Notes: generated from the sequence alone by a model not told the origin. Counted from the stretch's first letter, positions 3,106 through 40,206 are shown. The stretch is 41,717 nucleotides of DNA from Candidatus Daviesbacteria bacterium RIFCSPLOWO2_01_FULL_37_10 (GCA_001776865.1 MFDK01000004.1:1-41717); one strand, 5' to 3'. Program-made: numbers and translations.

Positions 3106-3525
3106 TCAAAACTCTCCCTTGATGATAAATTTCGTTGAAACGGGAAGCTTATGTGCTGCAAGCCTCATTGCCTCCGTTGCTATATCTGTCGTTACAGCTC
3201 CCATTTCAAAAATAAATTGTCCTCTTTTTACAACAGCCACATACCCTTCAACATCTCCTTTACCAGAACCCATTGGAGCCTCTGCCGGATGCTTCGTGAT
3301 AGGTTTATCAGGAAAAACTCTAATCCAAATACGACCGCCTCTTTTAGTATAATTAGTCATCGCCCTTCTAGCAGCTTCAATCTGTCTACTCGTTAACCAG
3401 CCAGACTCCATAGCTTTTAATCCAAATTGCCCAAAGTTCAATTTGTTAGATCTCGTAGCAATACCCCCCATCTTACCTCTAAACTGTTTTCTATATTTTG
3501 TTCTCCCTGGTTGAAGTAATGCCAT
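3106..3525 (-). CDS. rplP: 50S ribosomal protein L16
   Basis: [21 protein letters not shown]... is canonical L16. Confidence 0.97.
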
Positions 3526-3526
3526 A

Positions 3527-4168
3527 TTATATTTCCACCTCTCCTTTGTTTATCCAAACTTTCACTCCAACGAACCCTGACTTTGTCAGTGCCGGGAAAG
3601 ATGCAAAATCTATATCCTGCCTTAGAGTATGCAGCGGCATAACTCCAGAAGCCTTCCATTCTCTTCTTGCAATTTCTGCCCCGTTTATTCTTCCGGATAC
3701 AACCACCCGTACTCCTTTTGCGCCTGCTCTCATAACTCTATCTATTGTTTGGTTCATGACTCTTTGCGCAGGAAGCCTTCTTATAAGCTGCTCAGCTACT
3801 CCCTGAGCAACCAGGTATGCTGATAAATCAACTGAACGTATATCCTGAGGAGCAATCTCCAAAGCATTTTCACTTTTTATCTTTAGCTCTTTTAATAAAA
3901 ACTTCTTCAACTCTGTAAGACCTGTCCCTCCTCTGCCTATTAAAACTCCGGGTCTTGCTACAAAAATAAAAACTTTGAGTTTATTAATTGATCTTTCTAT
4001 TTCAATATTTGCAACTCCTGCAGTTTTTAATTTTTTCATCAAAATTTCCCTGATTTTTAAATCTTCTCTTAAAGTTTCCTTGTATTTTCTGCTGTCTGCA
4101 AACCACCTGGATTTCCAGGGTGCAGCACCTCCTATTCTAAGCCCTACCGGATGTATCTTCTGTCCCAT
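3527..4168 (-). CDS. rpsC: 30S ribosomal protein S3
   Basis: [14 protein letters not shown]... has the KH and S3-C signature. Confidence 0.97.
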
Positions 4169-4637: not shown

Positions 4638-4704
4638 GTCATTCCGGACTTGATCCGGAATCTATACACATATTGTATAGATCCTGAAACGAGTTCAGGA
4701 TGAC
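4638..4704. repeat. Composite GTCAT...ATGAC hairpin element (three consecutive hairpins)
   Basis: Three hairpins: gtcattccggacttgatccggaatc (4638-4662), ctatacacatattgtatag (4662-4680) and gatcctgaaacgagttcaggatgac (4680-4704). They fill the rplV-rpsS spacer. The architecture matches 8871-8929. Confidence 0.85.
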
Positions 4705-10282: not shown

Positions 10283-10828
10283 TCACTCTGAAGCACCAAG
10301 CAAATCTTTTTTCGCTACTATTTTATATGTAGAACAATTTTTTGAAAGTGCTTGGCTAATAAAATTTTCAAATCCCACATAAATAACTTTTTTCTGTTCT
10401 TCTTTCGCTGTTTTTATAGCTGGCAATAAATCTGTATCTGAGGAAAATAAATAACATTTTTCATATTCATTTTTAATCGCGCCGCGAACCATATCAACTG
10501 CAATCTGAACATCCACCCCCTTCTCATGGTAAGAACCGTCGGAGAATAGGAGAAAACCCAGCTTTATTTCGATATCTAATTTTCTTAAATTTGAGAATAA
10601 TGACTGTTGATTTGCATATAAACTTGCAGATTTCTTATTACCAGGATATTTTCTTATTTCACCAACATAATAGATTATCTGCAAATCTTTCGTTTTTTCT
10701 TTAGTTATAGAATGGACAAATTTTCTATAGTCAAGCCTCATTAGGTGAGTTTGGGGTAAGAGTTTCTTAACCTTATTATAGAAATTACTTCCATCAATCT
10801 GAACTAAAATTTTTTTATTCATCCTCAT
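10283..10828 (-). CDS. NYN-domain (LabA/DUF88-like) putative RNase
   Basis: The pattern ...[11 protein letters not shown]...[14 protein letters not shown]...[13 protein letters not shown]... matches the NYN/LabA family (DG.N, KGVD, sDtD). Confidence 0.85.
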
Positions 10829-13988: not shown

Positions 13989-14038
13989 TGATCTGCAGTT
14001 AAAAGCATCTTAATGTCTGAAAAGCTATATGTCAATAT

Positions 14039-14515
14039 CTACCACCTGAAGTGGGCGAAGGCACGATTGGCATTTGCTACTTTTTGGATTTCTTCTTTTT
14101 TCTTCATGGCAACTCCAGTACCACCAGATGCCTCCATAATTTCTGCTGCAAGTTTTTTATCAAAACTGTGATAATCTTTATTTGGCCTTGTTTGCGCACC
14201 AGTTATAATCCACCTGATTGCCAAAGCTTCTTTTCTATCTCCTCTTACCTCAGATGGAACCTGATACGATGCTCCCCCAACTCTTCTTGGCTTAACTTCC
14301 ATTTTCGGGGAAACATTCGTAATTGCTGTTTCAAAAACTTTTAAAGGATCCTGATTAGATTCCTCTTTAATTTGATCCAGCGCTCCGTAAACCAGTCTTT
14401 GTGCTATACTTTTTTTTCCGTCAATCATCACGTAGTTTATGAATTTTTGCAAAAGTCTGGATCCATAAATAGGATCCGGAGTAATTATTCTTCTTGGTGC
14501 TTTTTTACTTCTCAT
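14039..14515 (-). CDS. rpsG: 30S ribosomal protein S7
   Basis: MRSKKAPRRIITPDPIYGSRLLQKFINYVMIDGKKSIAQRLVY... is canonical S7. Confidence 0.97.
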   Translation of the reverse strand: MRSKKAPRRIITPDPIYGSRLLQKFINYVMIDGKKSIAQRLVYGALDQIKEESNQDPLKVFETAITNVSPKMEVKPRRVGGASYQVPSEVRGDRKEALAIRWIITGAQTRPNKDYHSFDKKLAAEIMEASGGTGVAMKKKEEIQKVANANRAFAHFRW

Positions 14516-22142: not shown

Positions 22143-22220
22143 TAGTAGATGGCCTCTATACTACAAGAAAAAGAAGCGTAACGACTTTGTACGCCTCAAT
22201 TTCACTATTCAATTAATAGT

Positions 22221-22249
22221 ATTAAACCACAATATCTTGTGTCTGTCAA
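22221..22249 (-). promoter_or_regulatory. Candidate rpoB promoter
   Basis: The minus strand reads TTGACA (22249-22244), a 17-nt spacer ending in TGg, then TTTAAT (22226-22221). It lies about 80 nt upstream of the rpoB ATG. Confidence 0.45.
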
Positions 22250-22383
22250 GGTCTGATTTAATCAGACCGAAGACCCTGAATTTATTGAAGGGTCAAGGAT
22301 TAAAATTGTAGAATTCAGGAGTTACCAAAATATTCTTCGAGCGAAGTGAGAAGTTACCATAAGAATATTAATATTTTTATGGT
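22250..22383. repeat. Repeat-dense spacer (several hairpin modules shared with other loci)
   Basis: Four modules. ggtctgatttaatcagacc is at 22250-22268. gaccctgaatttattgaagggtc is at 22272-22294, with a copy at 29732-29753. attcttcgagcgaagtgagaagt is at 22332-22354, with a copy at 41441-41463 and an inverted copy at 41653-41675. accataa...ttatggt is at 22356-22383. Confidence 0.75.
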
Positions 22384-22474
22384 ATGTTCTCGCTCGCCTC
22401 GCTGAGTCGGCGAAGCGGGCTAATCACTCGAACAATAAATCTGCTGGGAAGAACTGAACTCATACATAAGACTA

Positions 22475-22501
22475 TTGACTTTCAAGCTTATCGCTTATAA
22501 T
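22475..22501 (+). promoter_or_regulatory. Candidate promoter for the 176-aa ORF
   Basis: TTGACT (22475-22480), a 15-nt spacer, then TATAAT (22496-22501), 14 nt before the ATG. The spacer is short. Confidence 0.35.
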
Positions 22502-22515
22502 ATAAATCCTACAGT

Positions 22516-23046
22516 ATGATTGACACCCCAGATCTTTCAGAAGAAACTTCTAATATTTCAGATAACGAGATTGCGACCGCGATTGATCTCGCAAGAAAAC
22601 CGCTTAAAGAAACCAACGTTTTAAGAACATATGACATTCAAGATAGTATTAAAATTTCTATTGATGAAAATCAAAGAATAGTATTTCCAGAAAGTATTAA
22701 CTTAGCAAAGATGAGTTTCGACCCTTACAAATTATTAATCGGAATAAGCGCTGGAGATTATGATGAAAGTCAGAATAAGGCGATTATTTTTTATCCCCAT
22801 GAAAGAAATAATAAACTGAATGGAAAGTCTGTTATGAGAATGAGTGTTAATGCTGCAGTTAAACTTTTAGAAACTTGTTCAGAATATTTGGGTATAGATT
22901 CTAAAAGATTATTTTATATTTTTGAGGATTATACTAATAGGACACGCATCTGGAATGACGAAGAAATGGAACTCCATGGAAATGGTTTAGTCTATACCTT
23001 ATTAAACCACTATTCAAATAAAGTAAGGGGTTCTACTGTCAAATAG
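22516..23046 (+). CDS. Hypothetical 176-aa protein
   Basis: Clean ORF with an ATG start. I recognise no family. Confidence 0.5.
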   Translation: MIDTPDLSEETSNISDNEIATAIDLARKPLKETNVLRTYDIQDSIKISIDENQRIVFPESINLAKMSFDPYKLLIGISAGDYDESQNKAIIFYPHERNNKLNGKSVMRMSVNAAVKLLETCSEYLGIDSKRLFYIFEDYTNRTRIWNDEEMELHGNGLVYTLLNHYSNKVRGSTVK

Positions 23047-23125
23047 TTTATTCTTGAACCAGAATACCTTCCTCCATTGGAGGAGGGATGAATGGTTCAC
23101 AGAAGAACTTGCCCGAAGGGATACT

Positions 23126-23674
23126 TCACAGTTTACTGCGGAGTAATTTATTTTTCGAAACCGAAGGAGGGTTTAATATAGCTTCATCAATAATATCACG
23201 GAAGCTATCAATTGTTCCAAGAAATTGGCATCTACTTCGGAAAGCAATATCTCTTAGAGACTCTACAGGATCTCGACCTGATGGATTGTGGAATGAAATA
23301 TCAAATGGGATTGCACTAGTTTGTCCAAGCTCTTCATTTAAAACGCCTGCTAAATTCTCCTCCATTCGTTGACGTGACGATTCATCTAAATTAGACAGAA
23401 GATATGGCAACGCATGAAGATGTACTTTTCCACTATGGCGTGTTTTTTCAACAGTAATTCCTAAAGCTATCGGCATACGGTATCCATTGATTAGCCAGGG
23501 ATAGAAAGTTTTCACTCTTTCTGCTATAGTCAGGGCTTGCATAGATCCATGATAAGGCGTTAGAAACTCCATTAAAAGACCCAAGGGAAGATACCCGCTT
23601 TCCTGTGCTTCTTTTAATTGTTGCATTGATGCTCTTTGATTAGCTTCCAACTCTTGTAATACCATAAACTGCAT
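23126..23674 (-). CDS. Hypothetical ~180-aa protein
   Basis: Clean ORF with no recognisable family. The second ATG at 23665 (MVLQELE...) fits the extended -10 at 23677-23685 better than the first. Confidence 0.5.
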   Translation of the reverse strand: MQFMVLQELEANQRASMQQLKEAQESGYLPLGLLMEFLTPYHGSMQALTIAERVKTFYPWLINGYRMPIALGITVEKTRHSGKVHLHALPYLLSNLDESSRQRMEENLAGVLNEELGQTSAIPFDISFHNPSGRDPVESLRDIAFRSRCQFLGTIDSFRDIIDEAILNPPSVSKNKLLRSKL

Positions 23675-23676
23675 AA

Positions 23677-23685
23677 ATTATACCA
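23677..23685 (-). promoter_or_regulatory. Extended -10 promoter (TGgTATAAT), divergent from the NUDIX promoter
   Basis: The minus strand reads tggtataat. The ATG at 23665 lies 11 nt downstream. Confidence 0.4.
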
Positions 23686-23694
23686 CAATTCCTC

Positions 23695-23703
23695 TGCTAT
23701 AAT
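23695..23703 (+). promoter_or_regulatory. Extended -10 promoter (TGcTATAAT) for a leaderless NUDIX mRNA
   Basis: tgctataat, then 6 nt (taccga), then the ATG at 23710. Confidence 0.45.
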
Positions 23704-23709
23704 TACCGA

Positions 23710-24171
23710 ATGAAAGCTAAAGAAGGAGAAAAACATTTTACTGCATCTTGTTGGATAACTTCCACTGGAAAACCCAAAAAAATTCTGCTTATTCATCATA
23801 AGAAATTAGGAAGGTGGCTTCAGCCAGGAGGACATATTGAAAAATTTGAAAACCCGGTTGTTGCTGCAATAAGGGAAGTTCGCGAGGAAACGGGACTAGA
23901 TATCAGCTTTTTAGCTGATGGAATTTCCGTTATAGATAGCGAGGGCACATTTTTAACAGAGCCTGATTTTTTAATGGAACAAACTATTCCTGCACACGGT
24001 AAACAACCTCTTCACTATCACCTGGATATAAATTATGTTGTGTCAGTACCAGAACAGAAAATAAAACGCGCTGTTAAAGAATCCCGCGATATTGGCTGGT
24101 TTACCAAAAAAAATGCTCTAAAACTTAATGTTCATGAGGATACCAAAGTAATTATTAAAAAACTTATGTAA
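23710..24171 (+). CDS. NUDIX hydrolase
   Basis: The Nudix box GGHIEKFENPVVAAIREVREETGL matches Gx5Ex7REUxEExGU. Confidence 0.85.
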   Translation: MKAKEGEKHFTASCWITSTGKPKKILLIHHKKLGRWLQPGGHIEKFENPVVAAIREVREETGLDISFLADGISVIDSEGTFLTEPDFLMEQTIPAHGKQPLHYHLDINYVVSVPEQKIKRAVKESRDIGWFTKKNALKLNVHEDTKVIIKKLM

Positions 24172-24180
24172 TTGAAGGAA

Positions 24181-24402
24181 TTAAGCTACCGGGGTTTTTG
24201 GTAAAGACTTTCTATTCATAATAGCTTCTTTCTTAAGTCTTTTTTCTTCCATATCTGATTCCACAGCTTCCTGGCAAATTTTATCCGGACAAACAGTTTC
24301 TGTACGTGTAAGTACAGTATTACCTATTTGCTGTGTCCACTCTTTTGATACAATCCTGTCTTTCCCACATCTAATACAAGGGTTTGAATATACGGTTTGC
24401 AT
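24181..24402 (-). CDS. Small zinc-ribbon-like protein (73 aa)
   Basis: CIRCGKDR...CPDKIC cysteine pairs. No other recognisable feature. Confidence 0.45.
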   Translation of the reverse strand: MQTVYSNPCIRCGKDRIVSKEWTQQIGNTVLTRTETVCPDKICQEAVESDMEEKRLKKEAIMNRKSLPKTPVA

Positions 24403-24490
24403 AAAAACAGGTTTTTAAGATAAATCAAAAAGGCAGAAGAAGTATCTATACCTAAAACATATTATAACAGAGTCAGTTTAGTTTAGCAAA

Positions 24491-24522
24491 TTACGGATTA
24501 TTGGCTACATTTTTTGTTCTTC
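24491..24522 (-). other. Decayed duplicate of the mltG 3' end, including the stop position
   Basis: ttacggattattggctacattttttgttcttc compared with mltG 25023-25058 tcaaggattatttgctacattttccaggtgttcttc. By hand alignment 28/32 relic positions are identical with one 4-nt gap. Confidence 0.75.
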
Positions 24523-24529
24523 TGAAATG

Positions 24530-24538
24530 TGATATAAT
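24530..24538 (+). promoter_or_regulatory. Extended -10 promoter (TGaTATAAT) for a leaderless hicB mRNA
   Basis: tgatataat, then 6 nt (ctcact), then the ATG at 24545. Confidence 0.5.
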
Positions 24539-24544
24539 CTCACT

Positions 24545-24817
24545 ATGAAAAAGATTACTCAGAAAGTTTTGAAATATACTGTAATTTTTGAACCAGCAAA
24601 AGAAGGTGGATATGTTGTGTCTGTACCTGCATTACCGGGTTGCGCTACTCAAGGAGAAACTTTTGAAGAAGCAATCTATATGATTAAGGACGCTATAAAA
24701 CTTTATCTTTCCGTATTAAAAGAAGATGGCGAAGATATTCCTCAGGAAAAGGACGATATATTAATAACTAAAATCTCCATACCTGTACCTGCCATTTCTA
24801 TCAATGGCATCCTTTAA
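24545..24817 (+). CDS. hicB: HicB-family antitoxin
   Basis: KYTVIFEPAKEGGYVVSVPALPGCATQGETFEEAIYMIKDAIKLYL is the HicB/UPF0150 fold signature. It overlaps hicA by 14 nt. Confidence 0.85.
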   Translation: MKKITQKVLKYTVIFEPAKEGGYVVSVPALPGCATQGETFEEAIYMIKDAIKLYLSVLKEDGEDIPQEKDDILITKISIPVPAISINGIL

Positions 24818-25019
24818 ACCGAAAGAAATTATTTCTATTCTTCAGAAACTTGGATTTATTAGAAAAAGACAATCAGGCAGTCATGTCATAATGTATCATC
24901 CAGAGACAAAGATAAGTCTTCCAGTACCGCTTCATACCAAAGATATTAAGAGAGGACTAGTTTTAAGTATCATTAAACAAGCTAAATCAAACGAGGAAGA
25001 GTTTATTAAACTGAAATAA
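24804..25019 (+). CDS. hicA: HicA-family mRNA interferase toxin
   Basis: ...KEIISILQKLGFIRKRQSGSHVIMYHPE... is the HicA/YcfA signature. Confidence 0.85.
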   Translation: MASFKPKEIISILQKLGFIRKRQSGSHVIMYHPETKISLPVPLHTKDIKRGLVLSIIKQAKSNEEEFIKLK

Positions 25020-25022
25020 GTT

Positions 25023-30228: not shown

Positions 30229-32061
30229 TCAAACAAGCTCCGCATAAATTCTTCTGACCCCTGAAGAAACTGCTTCTTCCTTGGTAATCTTTATACCACC
30301 AATCACATTTGTATGCTCAACATGTGGTCCGCCACAAAATTCGGCTGAGTAGTAACCACTGCGCTCACGTTGATCCTTTGCATTCACATCATAAATATGA
30401 TTTGACCCTATTACATAAATACTTACTTCTTCATCGTATTTTCCACCGAAGAGCCCAATGGCATTCATCTTCTGTGCCTCTTTCACACTCATAAATTTTC
30501 TTTCCACTACCAAATCTTCTTCTATTTTTTCATTAACCAGATCCTCAACTTTTTTAATTTCCTCCTCAGTCATTTTTCTATCATACGAAAAATCAAATCT
30601 TAACCGTTCGGTATTAATATTCGATCCTTTCTGAAAAACTTCCGGACCTAAAACATCTCTTAGAGCCTGGTGGAGGAGGTGAGTAACAGTATGGTATTTA
30701 ATCTCTGTTTCAGAATGTCCAGCCAAACCTCCCTTAAACATTCCTGCAGATGCAGTCCTTGAAAGTTCTTGATGTTTTTCAAACTCTTTCTTAAATTGCT
30801 CTTTATCAATATCTTGTCCTTTTTGCCTAAACAATTCCTCAGTCACTTCATATGGAAATCCAAATGTTTGATATAAATCAAAAGCAATTTTGCCATCTAT
30901 TTCGGAAATTTTCTCAATTTCTTTTAATCCTTTATCCAAAGTCTTCTGAAATTTTTCCAGTTCTTCGGTTATTACTTTGTTCACCCTGGGTAAACCTTCT
31001 TCCCAGTCAATTTCAAAAATCTCATTATACTGCGTTCTAATGATTCGAATCATTGAAACAAATGAGCTCACATCTAACCTTCCACTTAAATTGCGCATTT
31101 TTATTGCAGCTCTCCTAAGCAGTCTTCGCAAAACATAACCGTGCAGCTTATTAGAAGGAATCACACCATCCATAATCAAAAAAACAGAAGCTTTCAAATG
31201 GTCTGCAATAATTCTCATTAATTTTTTTTCTTCCTCGTCCTCATATGGATTACCAATAACTTGTACGATCGCATCAGTTATTGGCTTATGTAAATCAGTC
31301 TGGAATATATCCGGGTTATCATTAGTTGCTGCCGTTAATCTCTCCAATCCTCCTCCAAAATCAACGTTTTTTTGCGGAAGTTTTTCAAATTCGCTGTCGC
31401 CTGTTTTTTTGTATTCAATGAAAACTGAGTTTCCTATCTCCATAAAACGCCCGCAATTACAGTGAGGATGACATTTTTCTCCAAACCTTTCATCATGTTC
31501 TACTTGTGGAAACTCGAAGAATATCTCCGAATCAGTTCCTCCGATTTCTCCAACCGGCATTTGATCGGGAGATCCGGATCTACTCCACCAATTTTCTTTA
31601 ACTCCATAAAAATAGATCCTATCCTCAGGTACTCCAAAATCCTTCCATATACTAAAAGTCTCTTCATCTTTAGGGATTAAATTATCTCCCTCAAAAACTG
31701 TTACATGAAGTCTGTTAGGATCTAATCCTAATACATTAGTTAAAAATTCATAAACCCACCATATTTGTTCTTTCTTAAAGTAATCCCCCAAACTCCAGTT
31801 ACCCAACATCTCAAAAAATGTGGTGTGCCTGTTATCTCCAACCCCTTCTATGTCCTCAGCCCTAAAACAGGCTTGCGAATTAACCAATCTTATACCTTCA
31901 GGATGAGTTTTCCCCATTAAATACGGAATTAACTGCTGCATTCCGGATGAGGTAAAAAGTGTTGTCTGATCATCCGACACCAATCTGGCTGGATTTATTT
32001 GCACATGTTTTCTGCTTTTAAAAAAATCCAGGAATTTTTGTCTAATAACTCTTGAATCCAT
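30229..32061 (-). CDS. alaS: Alanine--tRNA ligase, short form lacking the C-Ala domain
   Basis: MDSRVIRQKFLDFFKSRKH...FTSSGMQQ...RHTTFFEMLGNWSLGDYFK is the class II AlaRS core. The editing-domain motifs HTVTHLLHQAL and CGGPHV are present. At 610 aa it ends about 30 aa after the CxxxH motif. Confidence 0.95.
   Translation of the reverse strand: MDSRVIRQKFLDFFKSRKHVQINPARLVSDDQTTLFTSSGMQQLIPYLMGKTHPEGIRLVNSQACFRAEDIEGVGDNRHTTFFEMLGNWSLGDYFKKEQIWWVYEFLTNVLGLDPNRLHVTVFEGDNLIPKDEETFSIWKDFGVPEDRIYFYGVKENWWSRSGSPDQMPVGEIGGTDSEIFFEFPQVEHDERFGEKCHPHCNCGRFMEIGNSVFIEYKKTGDSEFEKLPQKNVDFGGGLERLTAATNDNPDIFQTDLHKPITDAIVQVIGNPYEDEEEKKLMRIIADHLKASVFLIMDGVIPSNKLHGYVLRRLLRRAAIKMRNLSGRLDVSSFVSMIRIIRTQYNEIFEIDWEEGLPRVNKVITEELEKFQKTLDKGLKEIEKISEIDGKIAFDLYQTFGFPYEVTEELFRQKGQDIDKEQFKKEFEKHQELSRTASAGMFKGGLAGHSETEIKYHTVTHLLHQALRDVLGPEVFQKGSNINTERLRFDFSYDRKMTEEEIKKVEDLVNEKIEEDLVVERKFMSVKEAQKMNAIGLFGGKYDEEVSIYVIGSNHIYDVNAKDQRERSGYYSAEFCGGPHVEHTNVIGGIKITKEEAVSSGVRRIYAELV
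31035..31054. repeat. 20-nt motif ttctaatgattcgaatcatt, copy 1, inside the alaS coding sequence
   Basis: Exact 20-mer shared with 34049-34068 and 35549-35568. The core aatgattcgaatcatt is a perfect 16-nt palindrome. Here it encodes SMIRIIRT. Confidence 0.85.
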
Positions 32062-32078: not shown

Positions 32079-32297
32079 TTAGCGTACATTTTTGAAGAGG
32101 CGGCGATTTGGTAATTTCGAAGACTTAGAGACTGTTAATATTTTCTCTTTTGCTTCTTCTGTATTCAAAAGCTTCTGTATACTATTTAAAGCCTGTTTTA
32201 AATCTCTGAGTATAAAAAATACCTGTAATCCTGTAATTGATAAAAATATGCCAAGAAGTATTATTAAAAAAATAAGTGCTATTTGTAAAAAATCCAT
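32079..32297 (-). CDS. Small membrane protein (72 aa)
   Basis: The N-terminal hydrophobic helix is FLQIALIFLIILLGIFLSITGLQVFFIL. A 7-bp hairpin, gaaggtagtataccttc (32062-32078), follows its stop. Confidence 0.45.
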   Translation of the reverse strand: MDFLQIALIFLIILLGIFLSITGLQVFFILRDLKQALNSIQKLLNTEEAKEKILTVSKSSKLPNRRLFKNVR

Positions 32298-32317: not shown

Positions 32318-32956
32318 CTAATCTTTTAAGTAAACAGTTCTTTCAACCTGTGTAGTTTTTCCGAATTTCGATGTAGAAGAAACCAATATTTTATTTACAC
32401 TCTCTGAAAGCTTAAGTTCCTGGGAAAAATTACCGTTACTGTCAGTCTCAATTTCCTGATTATTAATTGTAAGTTTTGCTTCCGGAATTGTTTTCCCGGA
32501 AACTGTAACTATTTGAGATTCAACATTTTGCTGATCTGTGGGAGTTGAAACCTCAAGAAAAGGGGAACCAACTAAATATCTATACTCATACCAAAGATAG
32601 CCAAAAAATATTATTACAAGGGTCACTACAATGGCTGACAGAACTTTTGCCGGAGTAAGAATAATTCTGCTTGTTTCTAGGGGGTTTCTAAAAGATTCTA
32701 AAATCTTCGGTGGATTCTTTTGATCTGAAAACTCCCTTCTGTAGATTGCCAGGAGCTTCTCTTTATCAAGCCCTAAAAATTTTCCATAACTTTTAATAAA
32801 TCCTTGTACAAAAGTTGAGGGAGGAAGTTTTGAGTAATCATCATTTTCGAGCGCCAGCAAAAGTTCTTTCCTGATCTTTGTTACTTTTTCGATTTCATCA
32901 AGAGTATAAAACTTTTTTTCCCGTTCTTCCTTTAAGATTTGCCCAACAGTTCTCAT
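32318..32956 (-). CDS. RodZ-like cytoskeleton/HTH membrane protein
   Basis: N-terminal XRE-type HTH (GQILKEEREKKFYTLDEIEKVTKIRKELLLALENDDYSKLP), a central TM helix and a C-terminal beta-rich domain. Confidence 0.7.
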   Translation of the reverse strand: MRTVGQILKEEREKKFYTLDEIEKVTKIRKELLLALENDDYSKLPPSTFVQGFIKSYGKFLGLDKEKLLAIYRREFSDQKNPPKILESFRNPLETSRIILTPAKVLSAIVVTLVIIFFGYLWYEYRYLVGSPFLEVSTPTDQQNVESQIVTVSGKTIPEAKLTINNQEIETDSNGNFSQELKLSESVNKILVSSTSKFGKTTQVERTVYLKD

Positions 32957-33006: not shown

Positions 33007-33414
33007 CTATACCGATCTTTTTCTAGCCTGTGGGAAATGAATAAGGAATAAAATTATTCCAACCAAGCTAAATGTTATCGCATTCTTGATATCATCAACC
33101 TGATGTTGTTTTCTATCTGCTGCTTCATTTTTTAGGCATTGTTCTTTTGCTCGTTGTATTTCCTGAGCGCTCGGGGTGCTCTCTATCCCATCTGGAGGCA
33201 GTACTTTAACTGACATCGGTCCTCTTGCAACCGGTACCAATCCATCTGCTCCATAGTCGCAGCTTGTGATTCCTCCCCATCTAAGTGGATACTGTTCAAA
33301 TTGCGTAGAATTTACAATAAAATTTGCAGCATTAAATATCCCAATAACCATTAAAATTATCGATCCAACTGAAATTATATAAAAATATATCGTAGCAATT
33401 GTCTTTCCGGACAT
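33007..33414 (-). CDS. Hypothetical membrane protein (135 aa, 2 TM helices)
   Basis: Hydrophobic helices at both termini (IATIYFYIISVGSIILMVIGIF and FSLVGIILFLIHF). Confidence 0.5.
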   Translation of the reverse strand: MSGKTIATIYFYIISVGSIILMVIGIFNAANFIVNSTQFEQYPLRWGGITSCDYGADGLVPVARGPMSVKVLPPDGIESTPSAQEIQRAKEQCLKNEAADRKQHQVDDIKNAITFSLVGIILFLIHFPQARKRSV

Positions 33415-33415
33415 A

Positions 33416-33697
33416 TTAAATTACTTTCATCTCGCTGAGATGCTCTCTAATCAATAAATTGGCAGCGTTTGATGTATCAATCCCTTTCTTTCTGGCCATC
33501 TTTTTAACCGCTTTCACTATTTCCGAATCAAGCGTTATAATCTCCTTATCTTCAAAAACCGATACCAGATTTTTGGAAAATTTCATATCTGTCACAGGTT
33601 CCCAAAAATCCGGGAAGTCTTCGGTTGAGTGAGTATCCCAAAATTCTGCCTCCTCTTGAATACTTTTAAATTTAGGTACAGTTCTAGTTTTTTTCAT
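33416..33697 (-). CDS. brnA: BrnA-type antitoxin
   Basis: From the ATG at 33695-33697: MKKTRTVPKFKSIQEEAEFWDTHSTEDF... plus a C-terminal RHH-like region. It overlaps the brnT stop by 14 nt. An upstream ATG at 33730 is also possible. Confidence 0.75.
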   Translation of the reverse strand: MKKTRTVPKFKSIQEEAEFWDTHSTEDFPDFWEPVTDMKFSKNLVSVFEDKEIITLDSEIVKAVKKMARKKGIDTSNAANLLIREHLSEMKVI

Positions 33698-33953
33698 TTT
33701 TAAATCTCCTTTTTTCCTTAAAATCAGCATCTCTTGCTGTCATTGGATAGAAATAACCACCCAATCTTGGTGATAAGATTATAGTTAAATACCTACCACT
33801 AACTGATTGCCCTATTAACTTGTAACTACCACTCCTACCTTTAGTGAATAAATTTTTGCTATTACAAGCCTCCTCTACTTCACTCTGCTCAACATTATGT
33901 CTTGCAGTATGGGCAATATTCCACTCGTCCCAGACCAGTTTCTTAATTACCAT
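33684..33953 (-). CDS. brnT: BrnT-type toxin (DUF497)
   Basis: ...LVWDEWNIAHTARHNVEQSEVEEA...YPMTARDADFKEKRRF is the BrnT/DUF497 pattern. Confidence 0.8.
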   Translation of the reverse strand: MVIKKLVWDEWNIAHTARHNVEQSEVEEACNSKNLFTKGRSGSYKLIGQSVSGRYLTIILSPRLGGYFYPMTARDADFKEKRRFKNEKN

Positions 33954-33961
33954 CCTTGTAT

Positions 33962-33970
33962 ATTATACCA
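33962..33970 (-). promoter_or_regulatory. Extended -10 promoter (TGgTATAAT) for a near-leaderless brnTA mRNA
   Basis: The minus strand reads tggtataat, then 8 nt, then the ATG at 33953. Confidence 0.45.
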
Positions 33971-34048
33971 CGGACAAATTTTTTACCATCACACTATATT
34001 TATATGCGCCAATATAATGTACGATCGTATATCTTATTGGTTAAGATA

Positions 34049-34068
34049 TTCTAATGATTCGAATCATT
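34049..34068. repeat. 20-nt motif ttctaatgattcgaatcatt, copy 2
   Basis: Exact copy, about 80 nt upstream of the brnT -10. GTCAT hairpins follow. Confidence 0.85.
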
Positions 34069-34080
34069 GAAGTCATAACT

Positions 34081-34105
34081 GTCATCCTCGCGTAGGCAGG
34101 GATCC
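34081..34105 (+). repeat. Degenerate GTCAT hairpin repeat
   Basis: gtcatcctcgcgtaggcagggatcc (imperfect stem). Confidence 0.6.
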
Positions 34106-34168
34106 ATTTAAAAACCTGCGTAGTAATTTCCACCGAGTCGAACTAGGCAGGCATCCCCAAGTGGGAAG

Positions 34169-34902
34169 CTAAATTTCCATTTGGGCAGATAGTTTTGGTA
34201 GATGAGAATAGTAAAACCAGCCTGTTTCAATTTGGGTCAGTACCAGTCTTACCTTTTCATAATCATTAAACTCTAATTCTCTAGAGGGGAAATCTCTTTT
34301 CATCACATCTAAATTAATCATATAACTAATACTACCAAGTCTTATATAATCTTCATCAAAAGGAGAACTCTGGTCATAACCATGATTTATCAATACAGCC
34401 TTACCTTGCTTTGTAAAGAAATATGTATATTGATACTCACACATAAATCCATTTCATCAACCCACATAATATCATCTGGATCTAATATTTCGGCATTAGC
34501 AGGAACTAGATCTCCCCCATAATCTTCAGGTCTGAGTCCTAAACTATAAACCGGATAATCAAAGCCTTCTGGTATTTTAAATGACCAGTTCTCTAACATG
34601 GATTCTTCCTGAAAAACCGTAATAAATGCCAAATGCGAAGGCAGATCTTTTTTGCTACATAAAAAGAGCATCGCTGTATTTAAACTCAAATCAGGATGTT
34701 CTAGTTTTTCCTTCTCGACTATTTTCTTAATCCTGTCAGCAAATAGTTTATTTTCTGCTTTAAAAATTTCTTCAGTTTCTCTCTCAGACATGGATAAGAT
34801 TATAAACCAAGGGTATGTTTTTATCAATTCATTCTCAGCTCCGCCTCCCCTTTGAGCCAAATATTCCTCTGCATTTTTAACCAGGAAATTTCCTGATTGC
34901 AT
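34169..34902 (-). pseudogene. Frameshifted ORF (two overlapping frames) whose 5' end is the ftsK relic
   Basis: ORFs 34390..34902 and 34169..34444 overlap in different frames. Removing one TG from the tgtgtg run (plus-strand cacaca, 34438-34443) fuses ...VDEMDL to CEYQYTYFF... The true start may be M38 (34791, MSERETEE...). Confidence 0.4.
34839..34889 (-). other. Decayed duplicate of the ftsK 3'-terminal coding sequence
   Basis: ctccgcctcccctttgagccaaatattcctctgcatttttaaccaggaaat compared with ftsK 36308-36358. By hand count 44/51 positions are identical with no gaps. It encodes LVKNAEEYLAQRGGG; ftsK has LVKNVEEYLAQRGGG. Confidence 0.85.
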
Positions 34903-34916
34903 ATATCGAACTGGTC

Positions 34917-34925
34917 TGCTATAAA
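34917..34925 (+). promoter_or_regulatory. Extended -10 promoter (TGcTATAAA) for the two-gene unit
   Basis: tgctataaa, then 7 nt, then the ATG at 34933. Confidence 0.4.
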
Positions 34926-34932
34926 TACACTT

Positions 34933-35121
34933 ATGAAAACAATTAACCTTTCAAGGCTTTTGAAAAACTTCTCTTCAGGATGGGTGGCTATTACTTCTGA
35001 CTATAAAAAAGTGGTTGCGTCAGGCAAAACCCTAAAAGAAGTTTCCAGTAAAGTCGGGGACGAAGATGTTGTTTTAATTTCTGCCTCAAAAAATTATAGA
35101 GGATATATAACTGCCGGATAA
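34933..35121 (+). CDS. Small protein (62 aa), DUF5678-like
   Basis: From the ATG at 34933: MKTINLSRLLKNFSSGWVAITSDYKKVVASGKTLKEVSSKVGDEDVVLISASKNYRGYI. From memory the pattern (GxWVAI..., vvasG.tl.ev) resembles DUF5678-type proteins. This needs an HMM search. Confidence 0.5.
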   Translation: MKTINLSRLLKNFSSGWVAITSDYKKVVASGKTLKEVSSKVGDEDVVLISASKNYRGYITAG

Positions 35122-35122
35122 G

Positions 35123-35527
35123 ATGAATTTCCCATATGCCACCCTCCCTGGTGTGCCAAAAGATACTAGAAGACCATTAGCACTAATTAAATTTATTCAC
35201 AAAGATAAATCAACTCGCCCGATTCTTTGTTTAATTGCTTCTGGTGCAGACTACTCTTATTTAACAACAGAGATTGCTGATTTATTGAATATTAATTTAA
35301 GTAAAATTACTCCACAGAAATCATTTGCAATTAACGGTTCGCAATTCTTATGTTACCCGTCAGAAATTGAAATCGAGATAGGTGGTCATCGATTAACTAT
35401 TCCAGTTCACTTTACTAAATCATTAACTTCGGCTTTCCCCTGCATAATAGGTCAGGAAAATTTCTTTAGCAAAACCAGGATTATTTTTGAAAGATACAAA
35501 TGGAATTTGGATATCAAATTAGTTTGA
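35123..35527 (+). CDS. Retropepsin-like (clan AA) domain protein with Ala in place of the catalytic Asp
   Basis: ...ILCLIASGADYSYLTTEIADLLNI... aligns with the D[ST]GA motif, read here as ASGA. A later ...PCIIGQENFF... aligns with the ILG.dfL motif. The gene starts 1 nt after the upstream stop. Confidence 0.55.
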   Translation: MNFPYATLPGVPKDTRRPLALIKFIHKDKSTRPILCLIASGADYSYLTTEIADLLNINLSKITPQKSFAINGSQFLCYPSEIEIEIGGHRLTIPVHFTKSLTSAFPCIIGQENFFSKTRIIFERYKWNLDIKLV

Positions 35528-35548
35528 AAATATATTTCATGTAATTTG

Positions 35549-35568
35549 TTCTAATGATTCGAATCATT
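35549..35568. repeat. 20-nt motif ttctaatgattcgaatcatt, copy 3
   Basis: Exact copy, 21 nt after the stop of the retropepsin-like gene. GTCAT hairpins follow. Confidence 0.85.
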
Positions 35569-35582
35569 AAAGCAACACATTT

Positions 35583-35695
35583 GTCATTCTGAAACGAACA
35601 AAAAGAAGCGATAAGCAGAACTTGCTTTTGCTACGCAAAAGTAGAATCTTTCTCCGTCATTGCGAGGAGCGAGTGAAGCGAGCGACGTGGCAATC
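35583..35695 (+). repeat. Two GTCAT hairpin repeats with nested inserts
   Basis: 35583-35648 is gtcattct[...ttttgctacgcaaaa...]agaatc. 35656-35695 is gtcattgcgaggagcgagtgaagcgagcgacgtggcaatc. Confidence 0.8.
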
Positions 35696-35736
35696 TATCT
35701 GACATTCCCACATTCCAAGTGGAAAACTATATAGAA

Positions 35737-36264
35737 TCACATTGCAACAAGTTGTGGAGAATGTAAACCTAAAACATGCTCTATAGAAGGAGGCTGAATG
35801 AAATGAATTTGAATCCTCTTAAAAATTTCAGGATGATCTGGAACAGGATAGTATCGCGGTGCTTCGTTAAGTTTCTTTTGCCATCTTTCAATTACTACTA
35901 TATCATCTTGATACCCCAATAAAACTTCTTCTCTATCCCTAACAACGCATAACACATTTGGATAAGTAGAATTAGTAGTGGGCATTAAACAAAGAGTTAA
36001 TATTAAAGGGTTATCTTCAATACCTCTTAATGCTTGAATATCTAACATCCGCCTATGAATAGTAGCGCTGGGTAAATTACCTTCCTCTATAAACTCTCTT
36101 CTTTGTTCTATTAGAGCATTCTTCCTATATAATAAAGGGCGCACATGAACATCCCATAAATCGAAATATTGTGAGGGGGAAATATTTCCTTTATCATCTA
36201 CATCATACTCAGAAAACGGAGTAATATCCTGACCTAATCGAACATCAATACGCTCTTCTACCAT
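35737..36264 (-). CDS. Hypothetical 175-aa protein (island cargo)
   Basis: Clean ORF with an ATG at 36262-36264. I recognise no family. Confidence 0.5.
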   Translation of the reverse strand: MVEERIDVRLGQDITPFSEYDVDDKGNISPSQYFDLWDVHVRPLLYRKNALIEQRREFIEEGNLPSATIHRRMLDIQALRGIEDNPLILTLCLMPTTNSTYPNVLCVVRDREEVLLGYQDDIVVIERWQKKLNEAPRYYPVPDHPEIFKRIQIHFIQPPSIEHVLGLHSPQLVAM

Positions 36265-36296
36265 TAAATAAACTATAAACTAGATGGTTTTATTTG

Positions 36297-38390
36297 TCAA
36301 CTTTCCCCTCCGCCGCCTCTTTGAGCCAAATATTCTTCAACATTTTTGACCAGGACATCCCGCGGTTTTGCACCGTCTCCTGTTCCAACAACTCCTGCCT
36401 CTTCCAGCTCATCCAGGATACGGGCTGCACGCGCATAGCCCACGCGAAGCCGTCTCTGCAGAAGTGAGGCTGAAGCCCGGTCATATTGACAAACAGTTCT
36501 TACCGCCTCCTCAAATAAATCATCTTCTTCACCTATACCACCTCCTTTACCAATTCTTCCAAGAGGCATTTCTGTTACCTCAGTTGTATACTGCGGCTCA
36601 ACTCCTGTTGATTTAAGATACTTTATTAAGTTATTTATTTCGGGGTCTTGAACGAAAACTCCCTGTATTCTAACAGGTTTGCTTGCATCAGGAGGTAAAA
36701 ACAACATATCTCCGCGACCAAGAAGTTTCTCAGCCCCCGGCGTATCCAAAATGACCCGGGAGTCAATCATGGATGATACATTAAATGCAATACGGCAGGG
36801 GATATTTGCCTTAATTAAACCTGTTATAACATCAACGGATGGCCGCTGCGTTGCCACAACAAGATGAATTCCTGTTGCTCTTGCCAGTTGGGCAATACGG
36901 GTGATTGCATCTTCCACTTCAACTGGAGCAAACATCATTAAATCTGCAAGTTCATCAATTATAATTACAATGTAAGGAAGAGCCTGAAATCCTGACATTT
37001 CATTATACCCTGCAATATTTCTAACTCCAACGGACTGGAAAAGTTTATACCTGCGGTCCATTTCTGCCATTGCCCATTTTAAGGCTGAGAGGATTTTTTC
37101 AGGCTCTGTTATAACAGGAGTTAAAAGATGGGGGATGCCGTTATAGTTTGTCAGTTCCACCCTTTTTGGGTCTATTAGAATAAGTTTAAGCTCGTCCGGA
37201 GAATTTCTGAAAAGCAGAGAGCTAATCATAGAATTTATTAAAATTGATTTTCCGGATCCGGTTGTTCCAGCAACCAGGCAATGGGGCATCCTGTCTATAT
37301 CAACAATCATAGGTTTTGAAGCTGTATCCCTGCCTAAAGATACTGCAAGTTTAGATTTGTGCTTACTCATCTCATCAGATGCCAGGATATTTTTAAGCCC
37401 TACTATCTCCAGTGAATGGTTTGGCACTTCAATCCCTACTAAAGATTTTCCGGGAATTGGCGCCTCAATTCTAACAGTTCCTGTTGGCGTAGCCAGGGAA
37501 AGAGCTATATCGTGCTGTAGGTTTGCAATTTTGGCAATTTTTGTCCCTGCTGATATTTCCAGCGCATATTGAGTAACAGCCGGACCACCGTTTACTTCAG
37601 CCACTCTTGCCTGAACCCCGAAAGAGTCCAGTGTTTTTTCAATAACGGAAGCATTTTTCTTTATATCTCCCCTGTTTGCAGGAGAACCAACTTTATCTGA
37701 TAGAAGAGAAAGCGGCGGATATTTCCAAACCCTTGCCTGCCCGGCAACATTTTGCACAAGTTCATCAGCCATAACTGTTTCTTTAGATTTCACAGGAGTT
37801 TTTTCAGAAGTCTGGTTCAATCCGGAAAGTTTGATAGGGATATGTTTTGCCTCAAAGGTTCTTTGTCTGGCAAATACAGGAATAAGTATTTTTTCCTTTA
37901 TAGCTTTTATTACCCACCCCAATATCCCAAAAATCTGCGAAAGCGAAGTATTAAACATTACAACAAGTCCCACTAAAAATACCCCTATTAACAAAAATGC
38001 ACTGCCTAAAGGAGTAATAAAAGATGCCAGCTGACTCCATAGAGAAAAACCAATCATGCCCGCATTTTCAGAAGAAATTCCTGCAGTAAGGCCTGTAATT
38101 GATAAAATTAAAAGTACAAGTCCTAAAAGTACATTTGTTTGAGCAAACCCCCACTTTACTTTTTGTAAGACAAGCCCGCAAAGCACAAATAAAACTGGAG
38201 AAAAAACATAAGTCCAGCCCAATGTTTTAAATAGAAAATTTTTCCAGAACCTTAAAATACTCGCATCCATTACCAATGATACTAAAGAAAGTCCTGCCAG
38301 CATAAAACTGATCAGGGATCCCACGGCAAAAATGGTTTTCTTTTTAAGTCTTAACTTTGGTGTTGAATAAATAGATCTTCGTCTAGACAT
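36297..38390 (-). CDS. ftsK: DNA translocase FtsK/SpoIIIE
   Basis: N-terminal TM helices, the motor domain with Walker A (VAGTTGSGKS), and a C-terminal winged-helix gamma-like domain (...LLQRRLRVGYARAARILDELEEAGVV...). Confidence 0.95.
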   Translation of the reverse strand: MSRRRSIYSTPKLRLKKKTIFAVGSLISFMLAGLSLVSLVMDASILRFWKNFLFKTLGWTYVFSPVLFVLCGLVLQKVKWGFAQTNVLLGLVLLILSITGLTAGISSENAGMIGFSLWSQLASFITPLGSAFLLIGVFLVGLVVMFNTSLSQIFGILGWVIKAIKEKILIPVFARQRTFEAKHIPIKLSGLNQTSEKTPVKSKETVMADELVQNVAGQARVWKYPPLSLLSDKVGSPANRGDIKKNASVIEKTLDSFGVQARVAEVNGGPAVTQYALEISAGTKIAKIANLQHDIALSLATPTGTVRIEAPIPGKSLVGIEVPNHSLEIVGLKNILASDEMSKHKSKLAVSLGRDTASKPMIVDIDRMPHCLVAGTTGSGKSILINSMISSLLFRNSPDELKLILIDPKRVELTNYNGIPHLLTPVITEPEKILSALKWAMAEMDRRYKLFQSVGVRNIAGYNEMSGFQALPYIVIIIDELADLMMFAPVEVEDAITRIAQLARATGIHLVVATQRPSVDVITGLIKANIPCRIAFNVSSMIDSRVILDTPGAEKLLGRGDMLFLPPDASKPVRIQGVFVQDPEINNLIKYLKSTGVEPQYTTEVTEMPLGRIGKGGGIGEEDDLFEEAVRTVCQYDRASASLLQRRLRVGYARAARILDELEEAGVVGTGDGAKPRDVLVKNVEEYLAQRGGGGES

Positions 38391-38508: not shown

Positions 38509-40206
38509 TTAGACCTCCACAACTACCGGTAAAATCATTGGTCTACGCTCTGTTGCCTGATGTAAAAACTTTTGCAGATCATTTTCTATGCTTCTTCTTG
38601 TAAGCCTCCAGTCAGATATTTTTTTACCTTGCTGGTTTATTGTATTTTTTACAACCTCTCTTGCGTCATCTAAAAGTTCTTCTGATATTTCTTCAAAAAC
38701 AAATCCTTTTGAAATAACATCAGGCTCCCCCACTAAATTTCCTGAACTGTGATCCACCCTCACAATAACTACAACAATTCCCTCCTCACTCATAAGTTTC
38801 CTATCCCGTAAAACAACATTCCCTATATCTCCTACACCAAGTCCGTCAACAAATATATTTTGTACATCAACTCTCCCGTCAATCTTTATACCGTTTCTAT
38901 CCAAATTAATAATATCTCCATCTACTACATCCAGAATTTTGCGTTTTTCATATCCTAACCCCTGAGCCATATTTGAAAATGCCCTCATATGTTTATAAGT
39001 ACCTCCTATCGGAAGCATGTATTCAGCTTTGATTAAATTTACCATAAGCCTTAGCTCCTCAAGCGCAGCATGACCTGAAACATGCAAATCAGAAGTTATG
39101 GCAGAATAATAAACATTTACCCCTAACTTTGTTAAATCATCAATTAAAGCATTTTGTGCAGATTCTGTCGATGGAATCGGGTCTGCCGAAAAAATAACAC
39201 TATCCCCGTCTTTTAATTTGATTGTTTTATGTTCATCGTTTGCAACCCGATCCAGTGCTGACCCTTCCTGACCTTGTGATCCTGCAATTAAAATAAGTAG
39301 CTTACCAGGTGCAAACGAAGGAATTGCTTCCTGATTTATCATGATTCCCGGAGGAGCATTCAAATACCCAAGGTCTCTTGCAACCTGAAAATTATTTTCA
39401 AAGCTTCTCCCTGCAAGTGTAACTTTACGACCCAATTTATAAGCCACGTTTATTGCCTGCTGCATCCTGGATACATTTGAGGACGTCATTGTAATTAAAA
39501 GCTTACCCTGTGTATCAAGAGCTGCTTTTTCAAAGGTTTCCTCAATACTTTTTTCGCTTTTATTAAATCCCGGTTTTTCAACTCTCAAGCAATCCATTAA
39601 AAGAAGCTTTACACCAGATGCGCCAACCTGGGCAATACGGTTTACATCTGTAACTTGCCCAGAAACCGGAGTCCAGTCTATTTTAAAATCTGCCTGATGA
39701 ATAATAGTTCCCACGGGAGTTTTAATAACAATCCCCTGAGAGTCAGGGATTGAGTGGGAAACCACATAAAATGATATATCAAAAACTCCAAGTTTAAGAG
39801 TTTGATCAAATTTAAGATCAAAAATTTTGTTTTTAGGTAAATTATGTTCAGTGAACTTGGCTCTTATAAATCCTGCAGTAAGTCTTTGGGTATAGATTGG
39901 AACCTGAAGTTCTGGCCAAATAAAGGGGAGCCCACCAATGTGGTCATCATGTCCATGAGTAATTATTATCCCTCTAATTTTATCAGTTTTGCCTCTGAGG
40001 TAAGATATATCCGGAATAACAAGATCAACCCCAGGCATAGCTTCATCAGGAAACCCAACTCCACAATCAATAATAATAATATCATTTCCGTATTCATAAA
40101 TATACATGTTCTTTGTGACATCACCTACACCACCAAGTGGAATAAGTTTAAGTGTCCCACCAGCTTTGTTGTTATCTCCAAAAAACTTTGGTTTAAAACT
40201 TTTCAT
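38509..40206 (-). CDS. rnj: Ribonuclease J (beta-CASP metallo-beta-lactamase)
   Basis: ...IIITHGHDDHIGGLPFIWPEL... is the HxHxDH motif. Length is 565 aa with RNase J architecture. Confidence 0.93.
   Translation of the reverse strand: MKSFKPKFFGDNNKAGGTLKLIPLGGVGDVTKNMYIYEYGNDIIIIDCGVGFPDEAMPGVDLVIPDISYLRGKTDKIRGIIITHGHDDHIGGLPFIWPELQVPIYTQRLTAGFIRAKFTEHNLPKNKIFDLKFDQTLKLGVFDISFYVVSHSIPDSQGIVIKTPVGTIIHQADFKIDWTPVSGQVTDVNRIAQVGASGVKLLLMDCLRVEKPGFNKSEKSIEETFEKAALDTQGKLLITMTSSNVSRMQQAINVAYKLGRKVTLAGRSFENNFQVARDLGYLNAPPGIMINQEAIPSFAPGKLLILIAGSQGQEGSALDRVANDEHKTIKLKDGDSVIFSADPIPSTESAQNALIDDLTKLGVNVYYSAITSDLHVSGHAALEELRLMVNLIKAEYMLPIGGTYKHMRAFSNMAQGLGYEKRKILDVVDGDIINLDRNGIKIDGRVDVQNIFVDGLGVGDIGNVVLRDRKLMSEEGIVVVIVRVDHSSGNLVGEPDVISKGFVFEEISEELLDDAREVVKNTINQQGKKISDWRLTRRSIENDLQKFLHQATERRPMILPVVVEV

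Follow-up and report, generated by a model that had tools for sequence, protein, structure and literature searches.

A displaced ftsK end as the probable scar of an insertion at a gene-gain hotspot in Candidatus Daviesbacteria

On a contig from Candidatus Daviesbacteria bacterium RIFCSPLOWO2_01_FULL_37_10 (GCA_001776865.1, MFDK01000004.1:1-41717), a member of the Microgenomates in the Candidate Phyla Radiation (CPR), the end of the gene ftsK is present twice, with 1469 nt from the start of one copy to the start of the other. The whole stretch of 41,717 nt is referred to here as the window; identical sequence is also found in GCA_001775315.1 and in several groundwater metagenome assemblies. An earlier description of the locus made from the sequence alone (the original prediction) had proposed an island at the ftsK 3' end, reminiscent of serially stacked cassettes that each end in a palindromic site. 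The arrangement is best explained, with a probability of roughly 0.6, as a recombination scar at a gene-gain hotspot, left by the homology-anchored insertion of a foreign 1469-bp block near the end of ftsK. The finding is real and of an ordinary kind, and it does not amount to a new cassette system. CPR bacteria have tiny genomes, few recognizable mobile elements, and many orphan genes, and to our knowledge their gain of genes is poorly documented. The locus offers a clean, polarized example, in which a fixed slot behind ftsK turns over across ∼70 species and in which, in at least two of these, incoming DNA left a displaced gene end as a datable scar.

The ftsK gene of the window (minus strand, 36297-38390) is intact and encodes 697 residues with matches to the Pfam families FtsK_alpha, FtsK_SpoIIIE, and FtsK_gamma. 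Its end at 36308-36358 aligns without gaps to 34839-34889 with 44 of 51 positions identical, and the local alignment score of 76 compares with 23.4 ± 2.3 (maximum 35) for 200 shuffled queries. Formal alignment thus bears out the duplication claimed originally, and the peptides quoted for it, as well as the frame shared by the lower copy with an open reading frame (ORF) at 34390-34902, are confirmed. The match of 51 nt described at that time exists, but the similarity actually extends over ∼97 nt (36358-36262 versus 34889-34789), taking in the stop codon and a promoter-like element and reaching as far as the next ATG. The upper copy (DR1, minus strand, 36262-36358) consists of the last 18 ftsK codons and the stop TGA (36297-36299), which is embedded in the -35-like hexamer TTGACA (36295-36300), followed after 17 nt by the -10-like TATAGT (36272-36277) and after a further 7 nt by the ATG of the ORF p175 at 36264. 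The lower copy (DR2, minus strand, 34789-34889) consists of the tail relic (34839-34889), the tandem GAATGAAT at 34827-34834, the -35-like TTGATA (34822-34827), and, again after 17 nt, the -10-like TATAAT (34799-34804), 7 nt before the ATG of the gene p207 (34789-34791). These are the two best sigma-70-like matches in 3.2 kb, each agreeing at 11 of 12 positions, and they lie at homologous places in the two copies; the same geometry is found behind ftsK in three relatives (L079, L048, and L032). The FtsK_gamma match stops at residue 681 and the repeat begins at residue 680, so that the duplicated codons (680-697) represent only the variable C-terminal tail of FtsK. Because they lie past FtsK_gamma, where the sequence differs freely from species to species, the gene should tolerate an insertion at this place. 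A palindrome, CCAGGAAATTTCCTG (34873-34897), is centered exactly on 34889/34890, where the relic is bounded upstream, with the relic on one side and the promoter-like region of p62 on the other. As originally described, the segment between the two copies contains p175 (minus strand, 35737-36264), an orphan ORF that constitutes the cargo of the block, an inverted two-gene module on the plus strand (34890-35541) with p62 (34933-35121) and p134 (35123-35527), GTCAT hairpins, and a copy of a 20-nt motif at 35549.

Which of the two copies is the older one can be judged from relatives. All of the ∼160 FtsK relatives examined end 8-25 residues past EEY[LF], and none has the long C-terminal continuation that would speak for the opposite polarity. 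Members of the p207 family begin 2-5 nt after the ftsK stop codon in two other Daviesbacteria (L025 and L026), and p207 (minus strand, 34169-34791) aligns to these ORFs over 181 columns with an hhalign probability of 95.8% (E = 8e-9). Because the p207 family adjoins ftsK elsewhere and the FtsK tails are all short, the relic and p207 evidently preserve the old adjacency, with the lower copy as the displaced original end of ftsK and the 1469-bp block as the insertion. The earlier proposal of a ∼1.47-kb insertion at the ftsK 3' end, with the lower copy as its relic, is thereby supported.

The comparison of synteny at ftsK that had been suggested for this locus also reveals that the site is a lineage-wide hotspot of gene gain. 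The core order RNase J-ftsK-rodZ-p72-alaS is kept in ∼80 species representatives, and the gap between ftsK and rodZ ranges from 7 nt, in Curtissbacteria and some Daviesbacteria, to 5.6 kb. In 69 loci, 142 ORFs of 56 families (42 singletons) occupy the gap, the singletons mostly sitting right behind ftsK and a semi-conserved trio (a DUF5671 protein, TsaC/YrdC, and an unknown 160-residue protein) near rodZ. The cargo is miscellaneous, including HxlR, ketoacyl synthase, GNAT, HAD, EEP nuclease, HIT, cupredoxin, BrnTA, PurC, PurB, and MFS proteins.

A second, independent case occurs in L079, whose FtsK is 76% identical to that of the window. Here a perfect 49-nt repeat of the ftsK tail (3141-3189 and 3645-3693, spaced by 504 nt) brackets a single orphan ORF of 122 residues having its own TTGCAA-17-TATAAT element, and the relic ends in QQF*, the live gene in QQY*. 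The sister species L082 has an empty site matching this insertion, L081 has a different ORF of 411 residues at this site without a repeat, and the junction of L079 is reproduced in a separate single-run assembly (L178). A probable third case is found in L052, where an exact 23-nt repeat of the ftsK tail stands between a scaffold gap and brnTA, shortly upstream of the latter. The last ∼25 nt of ftsK are included in every case, and the repeats start 55-60 nt before the stop, at non-homologous codons. A peptide hidden Markov model (HMM) of FtsK tails, run against six-frame translations of the gaps of the relatives, recovered only the relic of the window, a match in L095 being due to chance, and when metagenomes were scanned with the FtsK C-terminus, no further tail repeats emerged among the matches listed, which were mostly from distant taxa.

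Both ftsK-end copies are followed by the same order of features, namely an ORF, a ccaagtgg box, hairpins, and the motif, confirming this part of the original prediction. Specific to the two units are the CCACTTGG box past each stop codon and the motif. Box A (minus strand, 35709-35729) lies 15 nt past the p175 stop and forms a mini-hairpin, UUCC-ACUU-GGAA; box B (34157-34164) lies 4 nt past the stop of p207. The two agree at 15 of 18-19 positions and share the form YCC-ACUU-GGR with a compensatory change in the stem. The motif, TTCTAATGATTCGAATCATT, has a 9-6-9 inverted-repeat layout, TTCTAATGA-TTCGAA-TCATTAGAA, and occurs in three exact copies in the 41.7-kb window, where 0.03 are expected. 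Copy A (minus strand, 35542-35572, core 35549-35568) follows tail A and copy B (34042-34072) ends tail B (minus strand, 34042-34168), whereas the third copy lies inside the coding sequence of alaS (minus strand, 31028-31058, codons FVSMIRIIRTQ), where it encodes MIRIIR. Near-identical DNA is present at the same codons in alaS of L047 and L042, and copy A, translated on the minus strand, reads MIRIIRTNY with synonymous differences from alaS. The motif is therefore no independent element but a short alaS-derived fragment (23-33 nt), with the copy in alaS as the probable source. A second alaS-like piece of 45 nt, a near-palindrome upstream of brnT (plus strand, 33996-34041) similar to alaS 31251-31295, belongs to tail B and scores 36 against 20.7 ± 2.4 for shuffled sequence; in tblastn it reads LYAPI*CTIVYLIG against LHKPITDAIVQVIG. 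These pieces may be remnants of a copy of alaS that was rearranged, DNA that filled in junctions, or sites of binding. The alaS coding sequence itself contains a perfect 16-nt palindrome, AATGATTCGAATCATT, and a near-palindrome of ∼32 nt, CCAATAAC...GTTATTGG, short copies of both being present in the island tails. In the loci of 80 relatives the motif was not found outside coding sequence, and candidates in L018, L034, L042, L047, and L059 proved to be coincidental near-matches inside the tsaC/yrdC coding sequence (SSLNDLNHFNI).

The hairpins are of a different nature. Tail A (minus strand, 35573-35708) has degenerate GTCAT-family hairpins at 35583 and 35656 and a terminator-like stem at 35622-35644, and tail B has a GTCAT-family hairpin at 34081-34107. 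Of the strict GTCAT copies in the window, 13 of 17 are intergenic although ∼89% of the sequence is coding, and they occur in at least 10 intergenic regions; they constitute a genome-wide intergenic family and are not specific to the modules. The island tails as a whole (non-coding tail A, 35528-35736; non-coding tail B, 33954-34168) fold no better than shuffled sequence (tail A, z = +1.5). The hairpins, being generic, therefore carry no weight for a modular model. They begin with GTCAT, as in GTCATTCCTGCGAAAGCAGGAAT, are found, e.g., at 4638, 4704, 7974, 8871, 8929, 26717, 29773, 29802, 32978, 41355, 41410, and 41703, and look like repetitive extragenic palindromic or terminator elements; they often stand as inverted pairs downstream of genes and yield spurious small ORFs such as MSFLRKQESI.

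These features can be accommodated by the following sequence of events. Ancestrally, ftsK would have ended in ...AQRGGGAEN* and been followed by a short promoter-bearing spacer and then by p207, a 3' tail, and brnTA. A foreign block of 1469 bp would then have entered the last ∼55 nt of ftsK, in the tail-coding part past the gamma domain, carrying its own ftsK tail (...AQRGGGGES*), a homologous promoter, the ORF p175 together with a 3' tail, and p62/p134 in inverted orientation. With the incoming tail ftsK would have remained a complete gene, the resident tail and promoter being shifted 1469 nt downstream, where the tail, as part of no gene, would have decayed and a GAAT duplication would accidentally have opened a frame into p207. 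Transcription of p207 probably still starts from the promoter part of the relic. The donor may have been a related strain or species with a different occupant in the same slot. The two units share homologous flanks on the 5' side (ftsK tail and promoter-like element) as well as on the 3' side (CCACTTGG mini-hairpin and alaS-like palindrome), and they thus resemble alternative occupants of a single slot that became stacked. Two routes may be envisaged, one being homologous pairing at one end, in ftsK, with an illegitimate second join, as in homology-facilitated illegitimate recombination (HFIR), and the other a single crossover of a circularized fragment through a shared end of ∼50-100 nt; an integrase encoded by the block itself is a less likely agent. 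Retention of a duplicated anchor of ∼55 nt is not known to be the usual outcome of HFIR. The process is known from natural transformation (de Vries & Wackernagel, 2002; Prudhomme et al., 2002; Meier & Wackernagel, 2003, all as cited in PMC6382021), and, as far as it is described there, it shares with the present locus a one-sided homologous anchor and an illegitimate second join that need no mobility genes, the experiments cited having been done in phyla other than CPR. There is a likeness also to the orphan C-terminal modules of rhs/cdi loci, where an incoming module brings a new 3' end and the old end persists downstream with a piece of conserved sequence; unlike in these polymorphic-toxin loci, the FtsK tail is no toxin domain and the downstream ORFs belong to no recognizable immunity family.

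Several observations weigh against this reconstruction. Neither a donor nor an un-inserted allele was found, and the island is present in all 15 strain contigs, so that the event is reconstructed rather than observed. With all relatives at 67-84% identity, a sliding-window nearest-neighbor scan of ftsK gave no mosaic signal and speaks neither for nor against the reconstruction. The alaS-derived palindrome at the 3' end of both units has no explanation in an insertion model. The total number of promoter-like matches (12) does not exceed that in shuffled sequence (11.3), and the promoter argument therefore rests on position and on conservation, between the two copies and in L079, L048, and L032. 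The repeats of both solid cases start at a similar distance from the ftsK stop, which could point to a site-specific enzyme, although counter-selection of long, unstable repeats may produce the same pattern. Finally, no recombinase is present among the 25 Pfam families listed of the 59 in 63 hotspot ORFs, which leaves room for one in the hotspot of some relative.

The main rival, unlikely though it is, would be a remnant or cis-mobilizable derivative of a site-specific integrative element, with the ftsK 3' end as att site, the repeats as attL and attR, and an integrase lost or acting in trans; with each further integration the older cargo would come to lie farther downstream, as it does in island arrays linked to tRNA genes. 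Direct repeats of the 3' end of a target gene flanking an insert are the classic signature of such elements (44 of 51 positions identical in the window, 49 of 49 in L079), the same place was struck in L079 and probably in L052, the repeats start 55-60 nt from the stop, and the palindrome CCAGGAAATTTCCTG lies at the boundary of the relic. Known systems offer parallels. In tycheposon islands stacked elements are separated by partial copies of the target (bioRxiv 10.1101/2020.12.28.424599), and as at this locus the insert supplies a replacement 3' end so that the target gene stays intact, the displaced end is kept as a direct repeat, the site is struck repeatedly across the lineage, and older cargo is pushed inward. 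Streptococcal integrative and conjugative elements use ftsK as a conserved anchor and leave its product unchanged, with direct repeats of 12-54 bp, a length typical of integrase-borne elements in housekeeping genes (PMC4701971); unlike the present inserts, they target the 5' end, are large and conjugative, and encode tyrosine integrases. The island ORFs, the precomputed Pfam annotation within ±10 kb, and the 20 window ORFs scanned yielded no integrase, excisionase, or other mobility gene, a difference from site-specific islands that is compounded by the very small size of the inserts (0.5 and 1.47 kb), by their unrelated orphan genes, by a target that encodes only a protein tail, and by the beginning of the window and L079 repeats at non-homologous codons. 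Also against this rival, the 15 strain contigs include no empty site (one exists for the L079 case, in L082), and searches of IMG/VR with the motif, the ftsK-tail repeat, and p134 gave no match to viral contigs.

A more far-reaching idea, and a quite improbable one, is that Daviesbacteria, and perhaps other CPR lineages, possess a dedicated, integrase-poor mode of gene capture at the variable ftsK tail end, in which units bounded by their own ftsK tail and leaderless promoter as 5' site and by the CCACTTGG mini-hairpin and alaS-derived palindrome as 3' site are stacked by a recombinase encoded elsewhere. If this were true, the diversity of FtsK tails across species would be a by-product of such events, and a dedicated enzyme would make the locus a new gene-capture platform; the present evidence requires none.

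Local tandem duplication of a ∼1.5-kb unit (ftsK tail, promoter, ORF, and 3' tail) followed by divergence is, if anything, a little more improbable still. Such a duplication would account for the similar periods of the ftsK tail (1469 nt), the motif (1500 nt), and the ccaagtgg box (1558 nt). However, p175 and p207 have no similarity to each other, yet the non-coding flanks of the two units are 77-87% identical, and coding sequence should not diverge faster than its flanks. Moreover, homologues of p207 follow ftsK in other species, p175 is without homologues, and the p62/p134 pair is present only once.

The likeness to serially stacked cassettes that the original prediction saw would imply an integron-like or Xer (dif-module)-like platform, with the palindromic 20-nt motif as the recombination site closing each cassette. 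As in integron arrays, compact units of one or a few genes are stacked beside a fixed anchor, and an imperfect palindrome lies near the end of each; the motif stands at the distal boundary of both units and has the inverted-repeat layout noted above, and the neighboring module is a brnTA pair. The dif modules of Acinetobacter also carry such toxin-antitoxin cargo. The cassette interpretation nevertheless fails in several respects, and such a platform is very improbable. Integrons have an intI tyrosine integrase beside an attI site and a Pc promoter, and their cassettes mostly lack promoters and share one orientation. The ORFs tested include no intI, attI and attC architecture is lacking, and the motif has no GTTRRRY/RYYYAAC ends of the attC type. 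Both units have promoter-like elements of their own before the p175 and p207 ATGs, p62/p134 is inverted, and the hairpins are generic. The palindrome is a fragment of alaS coding sequence, ancestral in alaS, with only three copies in the window, one of them inside that gene, and none outside coding sequence in any of the 80 relatives' loci. Considered as an Xer site, it has a 6-nt center with arms of ∼9 nt, unlike those of the dif consensus, a 28-bp site of 11-6-11 layout to which XerC and XerD bind, and it coincides with no switch of strand bias.

The original prediction further held that the next ORF now begins, in frame, with the ftsK relic. Literally this is so, but the ORF at 34390-34902 is only the front part of an ORF of 244 codons (minus strand, 34169-34902) that is intact in other strains and is split in the window by a 1-nt deletion at 34455, and a real fusion is disfavored. 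The lower copy has 4 nt in excess of the upper one between GGAG and TTGA, and these belong to the tandem GAATGAAT. With one GAAT removed, the relic reads ...GGA GCT GAG AAT TGA, that is ...GGGAEN*, the same ending as in L039, L042, L050, and L052, and the old TGA persists inside TTGATA, now out of frame. Because the GAAT duplication displaces the old TGA, the frame stays open into p207, and the in-frame fusion is probably an artefact of the decay of a dead gene end. The ATG at 34791 is codon 38 (M38) of the 244-codon ORF, and the only close homologue of p207, P0003 (52% identity), begins at the equivalent of residue ∼44. Given this start and the promoter-like element before M38, the real gene is taken to be p207 with M38 as its most likely start, which would make the ftsK-like N-terminus untranslated upstream DNA. 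The p207 mRNA would probably be leaderless from 34791, with p175 likewise driven from 36264 by the upper copy. The least probable of all the alternatives is a functional fusion with the ftsK-tail peptide as N-terminal module of a real 244-residue protein, for although the ORF is open from ATG 34902 and intact in several strains, the homologues P0003, L025, and L026 have no such extension, the duplicated peptide lies outside the FtsK gamma domain, the promoter-like element lies inside the extension, ATG 34902 is merely 30 nt from the divergent p62 start, and a frameshift interrupts the gene in the window as well as in several further strain contigs. For annotation the lesson is that decay of the relic is the most likely origin of a spurious 244-residue "protein" with an FtsK tail at its start.

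The cargo genes were compared with protein family and sequence databases and p175 was modeled, in line with what the original prediction had suggested for the products of 175, 62, and 134 residues. Weak Pfam matches were obtained for p62 (DUF5678-like) and p134 (retropepsin-like). For p175 there is no Pfam or NCBIfam match, searches of 5.8 billion protein clusters and 1.84 billion representatives recovered nothing but p175 itself, and its AlphaFold model is unusable (predicted local distance difference test score, pLDDT, of 34); a candidate homologue, P0005, was rejected as coiled-coil noise. The model of the 244-residue ORF, with its single homologue, is likewise unusable (pLDDT 32). As read from the sequence, p62 has a -10-like element, TGnTATAAA, 7 nt before its ATG. 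Pairs homologous to p62/p134 are found in L035, L036, and L085, where they lie between p72 and alaS and not behind ftsK. At residue ∼39 the p134 of the window has ASGA where these homologues have the catalytic-type DSGA, and it may thus be inactive; a p134 profile had no match among PDB sequences. The gene encoding P0003 lies on a 4-kb contig (L096) and does not adjoin ftsK. On the same contig a CCACTTGG box (3574-3581) lies 9 nt past the stop of a convergent gene of 116 residues, a placement like that in the window, which may be beyond chance.

The island is fixed in the strain population, the 15 contigs being 99.5-100% identical (L012, considered as a variant, was rejected because it has the same arrangement with scaffold gaps). 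The only notable polymorphism among them is the 1-nt deletion that breaks p207 in the window, producing ORFs of 170 and 91 residues by comparison with L002, L004, L009, L010, L012, and L014. The presence of this polymorphic deletion in a near-clonal population suggests that the gene is dispensable.

Around the island, RNase J (38509-40206) precedes ftsK on the minus strand, and the genes beyond tail B are on the same strand. The next accessory module of the hotspot is the brnT/brnA pair (33416-33953), for which CopG_antitoxin matches above the cut-off (E = 1e-10) and BrnT_toxin weakly, below it (E = 3e-3); the two genes are adjacent, in the layout of BrnT/BrnA type II toxin-antitoxin systems. 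The pair also occurs in L068, directly after ftsK, and in L052, after the ftsK-tail repeat. It is followed by genes for a DUF5671 protein (33007-33414), a RodZ-like protein (32318-32956), p72 (32079-32297), and alaS (30229-32061). The island region contains no tRNA and no Rfam family. In ∼13 relatives (L029, L050, L051, L058, L061, L062, L063, L065, L067, L070, L075, L080, and L097) only alaS has its orientation reversed with respect to rodZ and p766, a single-gene inversion with synteny otherwise conserved. Further segments bounded by repeats were seen in this neighborhood in two relatives, L095 having a perfect 101-nt direct repeat (10592-10692 and 14019-14119, 3427 nt apart) and L091, from Curtissbacteria, an element of ∼73 nt that occurs three times between genes (10490, 11171, and 12321). 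Elsewhere in the window, a second accessory-looking patch at 22143-25022 consists of plus-strand ORFs amid a minus-strand region and contains three ORFs without Pfam match, a NUDIX hydrolase, and a HicB-like antitoxin.

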